Positions 5,907 to 59,190 of a DNA stretch of 64,000 bases are shown here, piece after piece (position 1 is the stretch's first letter; each line of letters opens with the position of its first letter). Both the position numbers and the translations under genes were made by a program. Source of the stretch: a virus; IMG/VR virus record IMGVR_UViG_3300037311_000293. One strand, 5' to 3'. The notes under the pieces are model-generated. The model saw only the letters and a list, made by a program, of their open reading frames with translations. It was not told the DNA's origin and made no database searches.

Positions 5907-5914
5907 CCTATCAG
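5907..5914 (+). promoter_or_regulatory. recurrent motif CCTATCAG (putative phage promoter)
   Basis: Followed by GGAGG and ATG at 5930; one of more than 12 intergenic copies. Confidence 0.55.
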
Positions 5915-16868: not shown

Positions 16869-16876
16869 CTGATAGG
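16869..16876 (-). promoter_or_regulatory. recurrent motif CCTATCAG
   Basis: TTTTGCCTATCAG then GAGGAG and ATG at 16850; follows a UUCG hairpin. Confidence 0.55.
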
Positions 16877-36745: not shown

Positions 36746-36753
36746 CTTATAGG
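36746..36753 (-). promoter_or_regulatory. recurrent motif CCTATAAG
   Basis: Directly after the terminator T-tract and before GAGG-ATG. Confidence 0.55.
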
Positions 36754-45742: not shown

Positions 45743-46090
45743 TCAGAGCTCGTGTACGTATACGGGCTTACCCCTACTCTTCATCTTTGCGATCATGTCT
45801 GCGGTTCCCCCACTCTTGGAGAACCACACGGCGATCAGGGCATCAGCATAGTCGGCCATGCGGGTGTTGCGCAGTTTGCCGGCGGCCATGTTCTTGTCCC
45901 AGTCGGCGTCTTCGACGTAGAACGTCTTGATCGGCTTGCGATTGACCCCGGCCCACACTTCTCCAAAGGTATCAGCGCCCGCAGCACCACCGCTCACGAC
46001 TTCCGTGATCGAATAGCCGGACAACCGTATGGCGTCGAGCACGTCGGTATACTTCACGCCCTTCCTGCTACCCGCGATGATCACTTTCAT
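45743..46090 (-). CDS. YspA/SLOG (DUF2493-like) nucleotide-binding protein
   Basis: VIIAGSR, VVSGGAAGAD, AG.LRN..MA.YADALIA.W..KSGGT..MI. Confidence 0.8.
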   Translation of the reverse strand: MKVIIAGSRKGVKYTDVLDAIRLSGYSITEVVSGGAAGADTFGEVWAGVNRKPIKTFYVEDADWDKNMAAGKLRNTRMADYADALIAVWFSKSGGTADMIAKMKSRGKPVYVHEL

Positions 46091-47300
46091 GTTCGATGAT
46101 CCTGTTGTAGAGAGTAGTAGTTCTTGACCGCGGATCGTTGTTGGTCAACGCCGAAGCGAGACCGGTGTCGCTGTAGAACATGACCACACCCTTCTTAGCG
46201 CGCGTAACCGCGGTGTAGAGTAGCTGGCGGTTCCACATGTAGTGGTGGCTGCCGTGTACCACCACGACAACCCAGTCCCATTCCGATCCCTGCGACTTGT
46301 GGATGGTGAGAGCATAGGCGAGCCGTAGAGTCGCCGCTTCCTCACGGGTGAAGTCAACTACGTTGCCGTCGAAGTCGACTGACATCTTGTCGTCTTTGAT
46401 CTCTACGACCTCTCCAATCTCCCCGTTGAAGACGTTCTTGTCGTAGTTGTTCTCGGTGGCCATCACTTGATCACGCGCACGGATTGCGTACTTCCCGCCC
46501 TTCGACGTCTTGGCGTTGAAGTGTGGTTCGTCCTCACCGTTGATCCGTTGAATCGGATTGATTGCAGACTGCAAGTAGTTGTTCAGCTTCTCGATGCCGA
46601 TGTCGCCTGAGTTCTGCGGAGCCAAGACTTGGATATCCTTGATCCCGGCTTCGGGCATGGACTTTGTGACCATGGCCGTGAGGGTACGCGCCAGCTTTTC
46701 TGCATCCGACAGCTTGTACGCCCGAAAGTCCGGACATCCTGTCAGGATGTCGATGTCTCCTGACAGGATCAGCGGAGCGTTTCTGCACACCCAGGACTCC
46801 AGCGCAGAACGATGAACCTTCTCGAGACGGACCACGGGCAGAGCATTGGACAAGATGATGTCTTCGAAGACGCGCCCAGGACCCACTGAAGGCAACTGAT
46901 CGACGTCTCCCATGAAGAAGAGTCGGGTCTTCTGCGTGTTGACGGCGTCGAGGAGCGCTGCCGCCGTCTCCGTGTCGAGCATGGAAGACTCGTCGACGAT
47001 CAATACATCGTGAGTCAGCGGATTCTGTGCGTTGTATCCGTATTCCCAACGACCAGGGCCGCCCTTGGCATCCAGAAGCCGATGAACCGTGAACGCCGCG
47101 GTGTTGGTGACCTCTGTGATCCTCTTGGCTGCTTTGCCGGTTGGGGCTACGAGACCAACAAGCCGCCCACGCATTCGCGACAGCGCCTCCTTGAGGATCG
47201 TAGTCTTACCCGTACCAGGCCCACCGGTGACGACACCGCTACGACTGTTCACCAACATCTGAACTGCTGTCTCTTGCGTCGGATCCAGTACGATCGTCAT
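46068..47300 (-). CDS. recD: RecD/RecD2-like SF1B helicase, catalytic part
   Basis: Walker A GGPGTGKT, LVAPTGKAA, IVDESSM, GDVDQLPSVGPG, YALTIHKSQGSE, LLYTAVTRAK. Confidence 0.9.
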   Translation of the reverse strand: MTIVLDPTQETAVQMLVNSRSGVVTGGPGTGKTTILKEALSRMRGRLVGLVAPTGKAAKRITEVTNTAAFTVHRLLDAKGGPGRWEYGYNAQNPLTHDVLIVDESSMLDTETAAALLDAVNTQKTRLFFMGDVDQLPSVGPGRVFEDIILSNALPVVRLEKVHRSALESWVCRNAPLILSGDIDILTGCPDFRAYKLSDAEKLARTLTAMVTKSMPEAGIKDIQVLAPQNSGDIGIEKLNNYLQSAINPIQRINGEDEPHFNAKTSKGGKYAIRARDQVMATENNYDKNVFNGEIGEVVEIKDDKMSVDFDGNVVDFTREEAATLRLAYALTIHKSQGSEWDWVVVVVHGSHHYMWNRQLLYTAVTRAKKGVVMFYSDTGLASALTNNDPRSRTTTLYNRIIEHESDHRG

Positions 47301-48177
47301 TGTCGTCCCTCGAAAGATTGATCAGTTTGTCTGCGATCGATTGTTCTGCACGAGCCAAACCGGCAAGTTGAATGTGGTCGCGATACAGAATGACCTGTTG
47401 CAGTAGTATCGCTTGCTCCACCGCAGAGACCGCTTCTTGATACTTGATGTCCGCGAGCCCGAGTACCAGGTTCACGACCTCGAAGGGGTCCACTGCGGTG
47501 TCGCCCTCTTGAGCTCTGCGCCGCATTGCCTCCACGACGCTTGCTACAAGCCTGTTCTCACTTGTACGGCTCTGAGCCTTGGCGGCCCGAATAGCATCCA
47601 AGCGGTCGTAGGACAGGTTGACGCCCTCGACGAAGTACAGGGCGAAGACCTCGTTGATGAAGTCGTCGAGTACGATCCCGGAGCGTCGAAGCCTGTGGAC
47701 CTCAGTCGCGGTGAACCCGCAGTTGTAGCAAGTGACGTAGTACTCGCGCTCTTCCTTGAACTTGATGTACGCAGTACGGATCTCTTCCGCGCGTTCGAGA
47801 GTGATACCGCTGATCGCAGCAAGACGTACCGGCTCGAACTCGATGACATCCCAGAGCTCCTCACCGAAGGTCTCCACGAGAGCCTTCACGCGCTGCGGCC
47901 CGATCTGGGGAAGTCGATCGATCATCCACTTCTCGTTGGCCGCGTTGCCCGTGGGTGCACTTCTGATCACCGTAGATACAGCGAACTGCCGCCCATACTT
48001 CGGGTGCTCTTTCCATTGACCCGTGAGATCGACGACATCGCCTACGCGAAACTCTTCAAGATGACCGCTGATTTGGTAGAACCGCGGACCGCTCTGAAGC
48101 GTGCCGTATTTCCACCCATCCCACGACTTGCTCGAAAGCGCGGTGATCTCACCGCTCAGCCCTACGATTACGCTCAT
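47239..48177 (-). CDS. RecD2 N-terminal OB/HhH domain protein
   Basis: G.V..L.GQW..HPKYG.QF; LP.IGP; L..ISGI....A..I; E..IA..L. Confidence 0.75.
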   Translation of the reverse strand: MSVIVGLSGEITALSSKSWDGWKYGTLQSGPRFYQISGHLEEFRVGDVVDLTGQWKEHPKYGRQFAVSTVIRSAPTGNAANEKWMIDRLPQIGPQRVKALVETFGEELWDVIEFEPVRLAAISGITLERAEEIRTAYIKFKEEREYYVTCYNCGFTATEVHRLRRSGIVLDDFINEVFALYFVEGVNLSYDRLDAIRAAKAQSRTSENRLVASVVEAMRRRAQEGDTAVDPFEVVNLVLGLADIKYQEAVSAVEQAILLQQVILYRDHIQLAGLARAEQSIADKLINLSRDDNDDRTGSDARDSSSDVGEQS

Positions 48178-48428
48178 CCAGCAACTCCCTGAGTTTCGCA
48201 GGAGGACTGACCTCGTATCCCGGCGGATCGGCCAGAAAGGGTACCCACTCCTGTACGTCGAACACGAAAAAGATCACCCATACCTCGGAGGTGTGGCGAT
48301 CTACATAACATCCGATGTCAGAGCCCGACAGCATGAACCCTGATCCATCAGCCGCCGTGAACCGTGCATCGTTCCCTTCTCTGATCACCGTACCATACCC
48401 AAACAGCGGGCAGTATGTGATACAGGGA

Positions 48429-48707
48429 TCAGAAAGGGATGTCATCTGACCCGAAATCATCTTCGGGGAAGTCGACCCCACGAGGCTGTGGTCTTCGTCC
48501 TTTTGTATCAGACCGCTTCCCAGTCCCGCGCGGCTTGACCACGAGCTTGGCCGTTTCCGGGAGCCTGGACAGATCCAGAAGCGGATTGAGGTGCAGCACC
48601 AACCCGCTGTCGTCCCCGCGCAGGGGCCAGGCAACACCACAGACGTGCCATCTGTTGTCGATGACCACGAGAATGTCGTGCGTCGGGGGTACGCGCTCGT
48701 TACTCAT
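48429..48707 (-). CDS. small protein with SSB-type acidic tail (DDIPF)
   Basis: Start MSNERV; W...GVAW...G..L.L.P core; ends DDFGSDDIPF. Confidence 0.55.
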   Translation of the reverse strand: MSNERVPPTHDILVVIDNRWHVCGVAWPLRGDDSGLVLHLNPLLDLSRLPETAKLVVKPRGTGKRSDTKGRRPQPRGVDFPEDDFGSDDIPF

Positions 48708-48876
48708 CGTGAACCTCGAGACGTCGGTGCATCTTGTTGATCTTCGCACACAGAGCCGGAAAGGCTTTGTTTCTGCGAAGGACACTGGTGTCTCCACCAC
48801 GAGCCAGAGCGTTGAACAGCGCGTTCAGGAGGATGATCTCCTCGTCACTGAACGACGTAGAAAGTCGCTTCTTCAT
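48700..48876 (-). CDS. small hypothetical protein
   Basis: MKKRLSTSFSDEEIILLNALF...; SD GAGG; not in the ORF track (58 aa). Confidence 0.5.
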   Translation of the reverse strand: MKKRLSTSFSDEEIILLNALFNALARGGDTSVLRRNKAFPALCAKINKMHRRLEVHDE

Positions 48877-48894
48877 GTGGCCTCAGTTAGTAAC

Positions 48895-48951
48895 GAGGAT
48901 CCGCGCTTCATTGGAGGAGAGAACGAGAGGAGGTACGAAGCGCGGATCCTC
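48895..48951 (-). ncRNA. candidate small RNA / 5' leader: 15-bp perfect hairpin with a 27-nt loop carrying two anti-SD tracts
   Basis: GAGGATCCGCGCTTC at 48895-48909 and GAAGCGCGGATCCTC at 48937-48951; minus-strand loop GUACCUCCUCUCGUUCUCUCCUCCAAU; directly downstream of the CCTATCAG motif. Confidence 0.5.
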
Positions 48952-48956
48952 AAATA

Positions 48957-48964
48957 CTGATAGG
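48957..48964 (-). promoter_or_regulatory. recurrent motif CCTATCAG
   Basis: TTTTTGCCTATCAG after the thyA terminator. Confidence 0.55.
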
Positions 48965-48970
48965 CAAAAA

Positions 48971-48996
48971 TGAAAGGGATCCGAAGATCCCCTTCA
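48971..48996 (-). terminator. UUCG hairpin terminator after thyA
   Basis: GGGATC-UUCG-GATCCC core plus T-tract. Confidence 0.65.
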
Positions 48997-48997
48997 T

Positions 48998-49849
48998 TCA
49001 CACGGCAACAGGTGCCTTGATGGCTGGGTGGTGATTGTAGTCCACAACCCGCACGTTCTCTGGCCGCACCTTGAACAGATCGGTGGGCCCGTCGATGCGA
49101 AGCGTAGGAGACGGAAAGACCTCACGCCGCAGTTGCTCCAACGCCTGATCGCGGTGGTTGGCGTAGAGATGAACATCCCCGAAGGTGTGGACGAACTCGC
49201 CGACCTCGTATCCAGTGCTCCGTGCAACCAGATGCGTCAGCAACGCATAGCTCGCGATGTTGAAGGGGACGCCGAGGAAGATGTCGGCGCTGCGCTGGTA
49301 CAGGTGGCAGCTCAGCTTCCCGGACTCGACGTAGAACTGGAACAGCGTGTGGCACGGCGGAAGAGCCACCTCGGTCGCTTCCTTTGGGTTCCAGCCGCTC
49401 ACAACAAGACGTCGACTTGTCGGGTTTTTCTTGATCTCGTTCACCACCCACGAGAGCTGGTCGAAGCCATCACTGGCGTACGTACCGTCAGCGAGCTTCG
49501 TGGCCCCGAAGTTGCGCCACTGGTGCCCGTATACCGGACCGAGCTCGCCTTCGGGTCTGCCAAACCGCGCACACTGCTGCTCGGTGGCCCACTCGTCCCA
49601 GATCGTAACACCAGCCTGTTTCAGCGGAGCCACGTTCGTCGATCCGCTGATCATCCAGAACAACTCGTGGACGATCGACTTCACGTGCATCTTCTTCGTG
49701 GTCAGAAGCGGAAAGTTTCTCTCCAGGTTGAACCGAAGCTGCTCACCGAAGAGCCCGTAGGTGCCCACTCCCGTTCGGTCGGAACGCTCTGCTCCTCGAA
49801 GCAAGAGCTTCTCAAGAAGAGTGAGGTACGCCATGTCGTGATACATCAT
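48998..49849 (-). CDS. thyA: thymidylate synthase
   Basis: [68 protein letters not shown]. Confidence 0.97.
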
Positions 49850-50038
49850 TCCACCACCTTCTGATCCTGAACAAAACGCAAGAGCCCTTCCATCCGTGCG
49901 GCGATTGCCGCCCATGCCGCGGCGTGCCCGATGGCCCATTGATCGTTGTCATCGTGTGCGCCGGCCCGTGTGTCTTTCACCATGGACTTGGCGTGATCGA
50001 CTTCGCGGGCAACCCGCTGTTCGAGAGCCTTGCGTTCG

Positions 50039-54260: not shown

Positions 54261-54288
54261 CTGATACGCGATCTGATGCTCCTATAAG
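54261..54288. promoter_or_regulatory. back-to-back divergent motif copies (CGTATCAG on minus, CCTATAAG on plus)
   Basis: Each is followed by GGAGGTG and a start codon in its own direction. Confidence 0.55.
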
Positions 54289-58732: not shown

Positions 58733-59190
58733 TCGCCGCAGCGGCTCACGGCGCCTGTGCGGATTGCGGATGCGCCCATGAAGAGTGCGAGTGCACAGAG
58801 GTCCCGGTCGCCGAGACCTATGTCTACGAAGGCGGGTTCGAGTGCCACGGCACTTACCTGTCCGAGTACCGCGGCTTCCGTGTCGTCCGTAAGCTCGGTC
58901 TCTACGAGGCCTTCGTGCTTCTGCGCGACAGCAAGCATGTCAAGGGTCCGCATAACTGGCCCGGCGATCGCGTGTTTCTCAGCCATGCGGGCCTGGTGAA
59001 CCGCGGATGGGCTGCCGTCGACGTCGATCGTGAGCGCGGTCGGATCCGTGTGGTCTACAACTACGACGGCCGCTACACCCTCCAGGAAGCCGGGCTTCAC
59101 GGCTTTCTCGAGGCCACGCGGCAGGCCACGACGTGGTCGGCGAGTCTACGAGCTCTCCACGACTACGCCGAAGACGGAGTGGATCAATGA
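58729..59190 (+). CDS. hypothetical protein with N-terminal Cys cluster
   Basis: CADCGCAHEECEC. Confidence 0.5.
   Translation: MIAAAAHGACADCGCAHEECECTEVPVAETYVYEGGFECHGTYLSEYRGFRVVRKLGLYEAFVLLRDSKHVKGPHNWPGDRVFLSHAGLVNRGWAAVDVDRERGRIRVVYNYDGRYTLQEAGLHGFLEATRQATTWSASLRALHDYAEDGVDQ

Follow-up and report, generated by a model that had tools for sequence, protein, structure and literature searches.

The 64,000-nt window analysed here, the whole stretch of DNA examined, very probably carries, in the 5′ leader of a replication operon, an RNA hairpin that is conserved, belongs to the sense strand, stands behind a phage-specific promoter and displays a double anti-Shine-Dalgarno (anti-SD) sequence in a sequence-constrained loop. 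The window is taken in reverse orientation from an IMG/VR phage record of 177,453 bp with 60% G+C that is rated complete. The case for the hairpin combines the layout of the locus, the recurrence of the promoter-like motif in front of it, and a comparison with a sister lineage in which the stem has changed by compensation and the loop tracts have stayed the same.

Architecture of the locus and the hairpin

The genes around the hairpin all lie on the minus strand of the window, where the order is thyA, a terminator, the promoter-like motif CCTATCAG, 5 nt, the hairpin, 10 nt, GAGG, 4 nt and the AUG of a 58-aa gene. The upstream gene encodes a thymidylate synthase of 313 aa (48998..49939; Pfam PF00303, E 2.6e-108), and its stop codon overlaps the foot of an intrinsic terminator recognized by RNA folding (48966..48996), with the stem UGAAGGGGAUC/GAUCCCUUUCA (14 pairs, 2 of them G.U), a UUCG loop and then U5. 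The motif CCTATCAG, assigned by its counts and recurrence, stands directly behind this U-tract (48957..48964). The whole RNA hairpin (48894-48952), delimited by inverted repeat and RNA fold, consists of the 5′ arm, U GAGGAUCCGCGCUUC (48937..48952), the 27-nt pyrimidine loop GUACCUCCUCUCGUUCUCUCCUCCAAU (48910..48936) and the 3′ arm, GAAGCGCGGAUCCUC G (48894..48909).

Downstream follows the GAGG Shine-Dalgarno (SD) sequence of the 58-aa gene (48881..48884). This first gene of the operon (48700..48876) has a 55% identical homologue in the sister contig L087; an AlphaFold model of its product (pLDDT 86) forms a two-helix hairpin, for which there was no Pfam or PHROG match and no significant PDB fold match. 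The idea of a ribbon-helix-helix repressor is neither backed nor refuted by this model. The rest of the operon head (46068..48707) comprises a 92-aa ORF, a 103-aa ORF, a 312-aa OB_YrrC/HHH protein of the RecD2 N-terminal type and a 410-aa RecD-like helicase, as assigned with Pfam, in a gene order common to L086 and L087. An independent Logan assembly of another run contains the identical hairpin sequence, which is therefore not an assembly artefact. The phage occurs in SRR13020431, and the sister lineage in SRR22973427 and ERZ27292645.

A preliminary description of this DNA had reported a perfect 15-bp inverted repeat enclosing a 27-nt loop, and we found it again exactly, with arms at 48895-48909 and 48937-48951 that are 15 nt each, 100% complementary and 27 nt apart. 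As RNA, the stem comprises 16-18 pairs, and the fold of the leader compared with shuffles gives z = -7.2. Both CUCCUC hexamers of the loop are unpaired with a probability of ~1.0 in the pseudoknot-free ensemble fold, so that the loop is predicted to be open, as that description had supposed. The whole genome holds 12 perfect inverted repeats of at least 11 bp with loops of up to 45 nt, among which this hairpin ties for longest as one of two; the longest repeats found by the same scan in five shuffled genomes measure 11-14 bp. The earlier statement that the stem exceeds the terminators of this phage and has no U-tract is also borne out, as the longest perfect terminator-type stems in the genome are 11-12 bp and the tail behind the 3′ arm reads GUUACUAACU. 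The hairpin does not appear in the genome terminator scan, and an intrinsic terminator is ruled out by the 27-nt loop together with the missing U-tract.

The loop is C-rich and nearly G-free and contains two tracts, ACCUCCUCUC (48925-48934) and CUCUCCUCCAA (48911-48921), each with one copy of CUCCUC, the complement of the GAGGAG that forms the core of this phage's ribosome-binding sites. ACCUCCU is found in the 3′ tail of the E. coli 16S rRNA, which ends ...GAUCACCUCCUUA-3′. At the foot of the 5′ arm lies an SD-like UGAGG, occupying the place that the SD holds at other motif copies, and the working SD follows 57 nt further on.

Several other features of the region were considered. Positions 48910-48936 form a perfect 9-nt mirror repeat, CCUCCUCUC GUU CUCUCCUCC, which shrinks to 7 nt in L087 and is probably a by-product of the two CUCCUC copies. 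A pyrimidine triplex clamp on GAGAGGAGG, combining Watson-Crick and Hoogsteen pairing, was set aside because its six C+ triplets are unlikely at neutral pH and because of that shortening of the mirror. An upstream small ORF (AUG at the junction of loop and 3′ arm, 12 codons, stop overlapping the AUG of the gene) was rejected, as its AUG is missing in L087 and L105, and a 42-aa intergenic frame was rejected as coding, as the indels between the lineages are not multiples of three.

The promoter-like motif and the phage RNA polymerase

Judged by its number, placement and recurrence, CCTATCAG is a phage-specific promoter-like element. Seven copies occur in the window compared with 1.09 expected, and the pattern scan places them at 5907-5914 on the plus strand and at 16869, 24441, 33596, 40428, 43575 and 48957 on the minus strand; the variant CCTATAAG lies at 36746, 44776 and 51498 (minus) and at 54281 and 61437 (plus). 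Across the genome, 12 exact copies and 5 of CCTATAAG make 17 occurrences of CCTAT(C/A)AG, all of which are intergenic and aimed at the next gene, shortly before its SD or start codon, with the extended consensus CCTAT(C/A)AG N3 (G/A)TG(A/G)AGG. At least 4 copies of CCTATCAG stand directly behind a hairpin and U-tract. Some copies of the motif are found in divergent intergenic regions beyond the reach of any upstream transcript, which argues that the motif is a promoter. At two copies (aacATG and taagtgATG) the start codon is so near that the message would be leaderless.

Apart from the copy in front of the hairpin, the other 16 have an SD or start codon 3-6 nt behind the motif. From this spacing, transcription most likely starts a few nucleotides behind CCTATCAG, and at the hairpin, because SD or start follow so closely elsewhere, the first transcribed base would fall no further downstream than the initial bases of the 5′ arm.

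The same octamer is enriched in the same position in three large phage records (G001-G003), distant relatives linked to this phage only by a homologue of the 312-aa protein with 33-35% identity. At several promoters of G003 (L029, L030 and L032; G003:C1 near 15.9, 17.3 and 28.2 kb) a small hairpin without a CU-rich loop stands between CCTATCAG and the SD, and judging by these sequences this phage group seems to employ 5′-proximal stem-loops repeatedly.

Sigma-70-type promoters showed no enrichment. Outside the window, a single open frame of 2080 aa on the plus strand (G000:C1 ~45.5-51.8 kb; loci L122 and L123) carries the Pfam domains of RNA polymerase beta (PF00562, E 3e-56) and beta′ (PF00623, E 6e-11) and looks like a fused, shortened multisubunit-type phage polymerase. 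Directly behind a copy of CCTATCAG lies a 271-aa ORF (L121:1327-2142, plus strand, equal to G000:C1:167912-168727) with weak colinear matches to sigma-70 region 2 (E 0.09), region 3 (E 0.0014) and the C-terminal HTH (E 0.02), and this ORF may encode a divergent phage sigma factor.

Covariation of the stem and conservation of the loop in a sister lineage

A syntenic sister lineage with the same cassette is represented by two contigs traced from a large protein collection, L087 (Logan, 12.6 kb) and L105 (ENA, 802 bp); in L087, too, thyA precedes the cassette. Proteins of the sister lineage are 52-77% identical to those of the window, and 4-fold degenerate sites are only 38% identical and hence saturated. 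Between the thyA stop codon and the hairpin's end, the cassette is nevertheless ~90% identical. In L087 and L105 the motif and the terminator have hardly changed, the terminator differing at one loop base and one flanking base. The stem of the thyA terminator (L087:1455-1486) is identical despite the saturated synonymous sites and thus offers no covariation; it may double as the upstream part of the promoter, and, given this conservation of the terminator sequence, the whole cassette may carry further constraint.

In the hairpin stem, all 16 pairs are kept in the three sequences, and the differences, at 8 of 30 positions, all fall within four compensatory pairs in which both sides have changed. 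Slid controls gave 0 doubly changed pairs, and 18 of 500 shuffles reached the observed covariation values, a comparison that rests on two lineages and three sequences and therefore on few events. Pair 19-65 runs from U-A (window) through U.G (L087) to C-G (L105), a step that fits the gene-sense RNA only, as the opposite strand would have A.C. Together with its distance of 5 nt from CCTATCAG, this sense-only step upholds the earlier proposal that the hairpin is promoter-proximal and belongs to the strand read from the motif.

The loop tells the opposite story to the stem. Its tracts ACCUCCUC and GUUCUCUCCUCCAA (8 and 14 nt), each holding CUCCUC, are identical in L087 and L105, and the lineages differ in the loop only at the first base, at 2-3 bases between the tracts and at the last base. 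The two CUCCUC copies are spaced 12-13 nt apart in both lineages, within loops of 25-27 nt and hairpins of 57-59 nt. The chance of finding these loop bases unchanged is P ~2e-10 at the synonymous-site rate, counted over 23 positions (22 tract bases and the invariant U before ACCUCCUC), and P < 1e-3 at the stem's own divergence of 27%. GAGG is kept in both contigs, and the spacer between hairpin and SD is scrambled, with 6-7 nt there versus 10 nt in the window.

Compensation in the stem together with unchanged loop tracts indicates that the stem has been selected for pairing and the loop for sequence. The loop as the working part, which the preliminary description had proposed and for which it had pointed to covariance and to the fate of the tracts in relatives, therefore stands. 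A recent transfer of the cassette is unlikely from these sequences, because the stem has had time for four double changes.

We then looked for further copies and relatives. Near-sequence and protein searches of isolate phages gave no close relative. Among viral contigs, a ThyA search returned only 52% matches and a search with the 312-aa protein none, and a scan of JGI metagenomes by alignment of the 312-aa protein returned only relatives at 22-34%, without the motif, plus one 26-residue fragment at 54%. Scans of IMG/VR viral contigs and 185,579 reference genomes for the exact loop pattern yielded low-complexity or chance matches only, without flanking stems, and a scan for the motif joined to the start of the arm gave a single match, in an unrelated coding region. 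A covariance model built from the three sequences found no second copy in the source genome (G000) and none in G001-G004, and at the equivalent promoters of distant relatives the motif runs straight into the SD. As far as these searches reach, the hairpin is single-copy and confined to one sub-lineage. An Rfam cmscan with E up to 10 gave no match on 48894-48952, its lone CcsR1 row, at 49106-49175, scoring 11 bits and being due to chance. In IMG/VR, several small contigs (6-10 kb; L039, L054, L059, L075 and L082) contain an unrelated repeat, CCTCCTCTCCCTGTCCCTCTCCTCC then cagtGGAGGAGAGGG, which occurs 2-3 times per contig on both strands and forms a hairpin of its own.

Possible modes of action and known systems

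As to how the hairpin works, we tentatively favour, with somewhat less than even confidence and from sequence comparison, action by pairing with GAGGAG-type ribosome-binding sites combined with protection of the 5′ end. The hairpin would be cis-encoded at the very 5′ end of the replication-operon mRNA, ahead of the 58-aa gene, the two small ORFs and the RecD-type helicase genes, and transcription from CCTATCAG would put the 16-18-bp stem 0-5 nt from that end. The stem would be required as a stem alone, keeping the 25-27-nt pyrimidine loop open, and the loop would be required for its sequence, two CUCCUC hexamers that are the exact complement of GAGGAG-type SD sites. By pairing with such sites in other cistrons or messages, the loop would damp their translation, the acting form being either the leader itself or a stable 5′ fragment remaining after mRNA decay. 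The terminal stem would meanwhile shield the operon mRNA from 5′-end-dependent decay.

When compared with the predicted start regions of the phage, the loop finds 10 sites of at least 8 nt versus 3.2 expected, a value reached by 3.5% of shuffled loops, and an excess of this kind is expected in part for any CCUCC-containing, anti-SD-like sequence. The perfect 13-nt complement of the loop, UGGAGGAGAGAAC, ends one base before the AUG of a 222-aa gene, whose product has no detectable homologue (PHROGs and Pfam blank). At L106:2496-2600 (minus), corresponding to G000:C1 ~58995-59100 on the minus strand, the variant motif CCTATTAG precedes a leader of ~50 nt that ends in a hairpin and U9, and directly behind these come UGGAGGAGAGAACC and the AUG of this orphan gene, its ribosome-binding site being the 13-nt complement of the loop; from its sequence, this promoter-terminator-RBS arrangement looks like an attenuator. 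The best duplex that the loop can form inside the replication operon lies at homologous positions in the two phages and reaches -31.5 kcal/mol, a value that 2 of 25 shuffled loops equal, so that it is not significant.

A wider version of the pairing reading has a low probability in our estimate. Here the leader-borne, perhaps released, RNA would be a phage riboregulator whose anti-SD copies titrate GAGGAG-type sites of host and phage, or mimic the 16S 3′ tail and so capture its factor. Under titration, ribosomes would be re-allocated during infection, for example toward the leaderless-looking starts behind some copies of CCTATCAG.

Regulation of the adjacent gene in cis, by masking of its GAGG at 48881-48884, had also been suggested and fits the hairpin poorly. 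Pairing would be limited to 4-5 nt, the hairpin does not include the SD, and the loop differences between the lineages do not track those of the SD. In the pseudoknot-free fold ensemble, the partners of the SD are coding-region bases and the loop stays unpaired. The variable linker of 6-10 nt behind the stem would, by A-form geometry, have to span a helix of 16-18 bp.

Among the rival explanations, a protein-binding RNA operator is unlikely but deserves serious weight. The stem would present the two CUCCUC sites to a dimeric or two-domain protein through which translation, stability or elongation of the operon is controlled. The partner might be a regulator of the phage, for example the 58-aa product, or ribosomal protein S1, or Rho, for which the loop would be a C-rich, G-poor loading site; the hairpin might also act on the polymerase in the manner of a put element, or bind a factor whose normal target is the 16S 3′ tail. 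RNA operators classically combine a stem constrained in structure with a loop constrained in sequence, a hexamer repeated at 12-13 nt in both lineages would suit a dimeric protein equally well, and to the C-rich, nearly G-free loop is added a next gene downstream that encodes a small conserved helical protein. However, it would be a coincidence for a protein site to equal the complement of the SD consensus exactly, and twice, and Pfam, PHROG and fold searches found no RNA-binding family for the 58-aa protein. A version based on antitermination meets no terminator inside the operon head, and one based on Rho meets a loop far shorter than the usual loading site. That the hairpin is a plain 5′-terminal stabilizer, in which the stem alone matters and the loop is incidental, appears improbable. 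Such a role would agree with a stem that starts at the predicted 5′ end and is kept by compensation, and with the small hairpins between the same motif and the SD at several G003 promoters, but it leaves the perfect conservation of the loop tracts, against a saturated background and a stem changed at 8 of 30 positions, without a reason, and a loop of 25-27 nt weakens a hairpin and is unneeded for protection.

Selection at the level of DNA is a quite improbable source of the pattern, whether through a cruciform, a section of a replication origin beside the helicase genes or a palindrome bound by a dimeric repressor, for which the 58-aa protein is one candidate, with the purine/pyrimidine mirror repeat as a structural element. 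Symmetric changes in the arms would also preserve a DNA palindrome, each arm has a 6-bp palindrome of its own (GGATCC here, GGGCCC in L105), the loop is a 9-nt mirror repeat, and the element sits at a promoter upstream of replication genes. Yet the arms have changed at 4 of 15 positions, although conservation would be expected of an operator, and a distance of 42 bp between half-sites is atypical. The region is not rich in A+T, and the model of the 58-aa protein has no match to a DNA-binding fold; moreover, L087 breaks the palindrome by exactly the change that RNA tolerates, the U.G pair.

The preliminary description had leaned towards a discrete trans-acting small RNA (sRNA), and a separate gene of this kind, ended by the hairpin or by processing and blocking SD sites globally, for example in a shift to leaderless messages, now seems very unlikely. 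Anti-SD loops are indeed found in cuckoo/CcsR and RNAIII-type sRNAs (PMC4615179), and the hairpin has its own promoter motif and, in the window, an AU-rich stretch behind the stem. This stretch is not conserved, however, Rfam offers no match, and a U-tract is missing in a phage whose terminators are otherwise of the hairpin-plus-U kind. Only 6-10 nt behind the stem, in 3 of 3 sequences, come the SD and AUG of a conserved gene (58/62 aa), and because the hairpin runs directly into them it is a 5′ leader, from which a free RNA would have to be processed. The same description had raised, for the opposite strand, an RNA whose GGAGGAG and GAGAGGAGG would lure 30S subunits as decoy SD sites, which we regard as extremely improbable. 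Two very strong SD-like tracts would indeed be exposed together in the loop on the plus strand, but in L087 this strand would carry the A.C mismatch, the genes and promoter motifs here all point the other way, and the antisense ORFs over the hairpin are not conserved in the relatives.

Phage translation control is known mostly from proteins, such as RegA and RegB of T4, and from a few prophage sRNAs. The constrained part of the leader hairpin is a double anti-SD copy, in an uncultured large phage that apparently has its own RNA polymerase, and if pairing is how the loop works, it would offer a compact and testable case in which a virus regulates by means of the very sequence that ribosomes use for recognition. 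A modest reading still gives a defined promoter-plus-leader cassette for this phage group and a clean example of a stem kept by structure and a loop kept by sequence, which shows which bases to mutate.

Among known leaders, those that sequester the SD (ROSE and fourU RNA thermometers, the expression platforms of riboswitches and aapA3-type toxin mRNAs) likewise combine CU-rich anti-SD tracts with an SD; there the anti-SD is paired to the leader's own SD, whereas here it is displayed unpaired and the SD lies outside the hairpin. The leaders of E. coli ompA and T7 gene 10 have 5′-terminal stabilizing stem-loops whose loop sequence is free. The present hairpin resembles them in being strong and a few nucleotides from the predicted 5′ end, directly behind a phage-specific promoter, and differs from them in that its unusually long loop is the most conserved part. 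In the PeSL cassettes of T4-type phages, reportedly described by Arbiol et al. in 2010, a stem-loop terminator abuts a short promoter between genes, an arrangement also repeated here at the at least 4 copies of CCTATCAG mentioned above; PeSLs are said to contain host sigma-70 early promoters and no downstream leader hairpin, in contrast to the present motif, which is not sigma-70-like, in a phage with its own polymerase and with a leader hairpin.

The cuckoo/CcsR sRNAs of alphaproteobacteria (RSs0680a-d and alpha-r14; RF02791 and relatives) consist of 2-4 adjacent hairpins of 24-50 nt each, with variable stems and the conserved loop motif CCUCCUCCC, one per loop and repeated within the RNA (PMC4615179). 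They are chromosomal, separate or processed sRNAs with a terminator-like hairpin, and their model allows loops of up to 27 nt (PMC4615179). In contrast, the phage leader has one hairpin of 57-59 nt with two motifs in a single loop, lacks a terminator and is fused to a phage operon; its loop tracts ACCUCCUCUC and CUCUCCUCCAA are without the CCC end and have only CCUCCUC in common with CCUCCUCCC, and the Rfam covariance model does not match it. The hairpin thus departs from the family in hairpin number and size, exact motif, separate transcript and model match, the features that define it. In logic, the cuckoo/CcsR sRNAs are nevertheless the closest known system, sharing with the phage hairpin a variable stem below a conserved, anti-SD-like pyrimidine motif in the loop, which is repeated within one RNA, here as CUCCUC twice.
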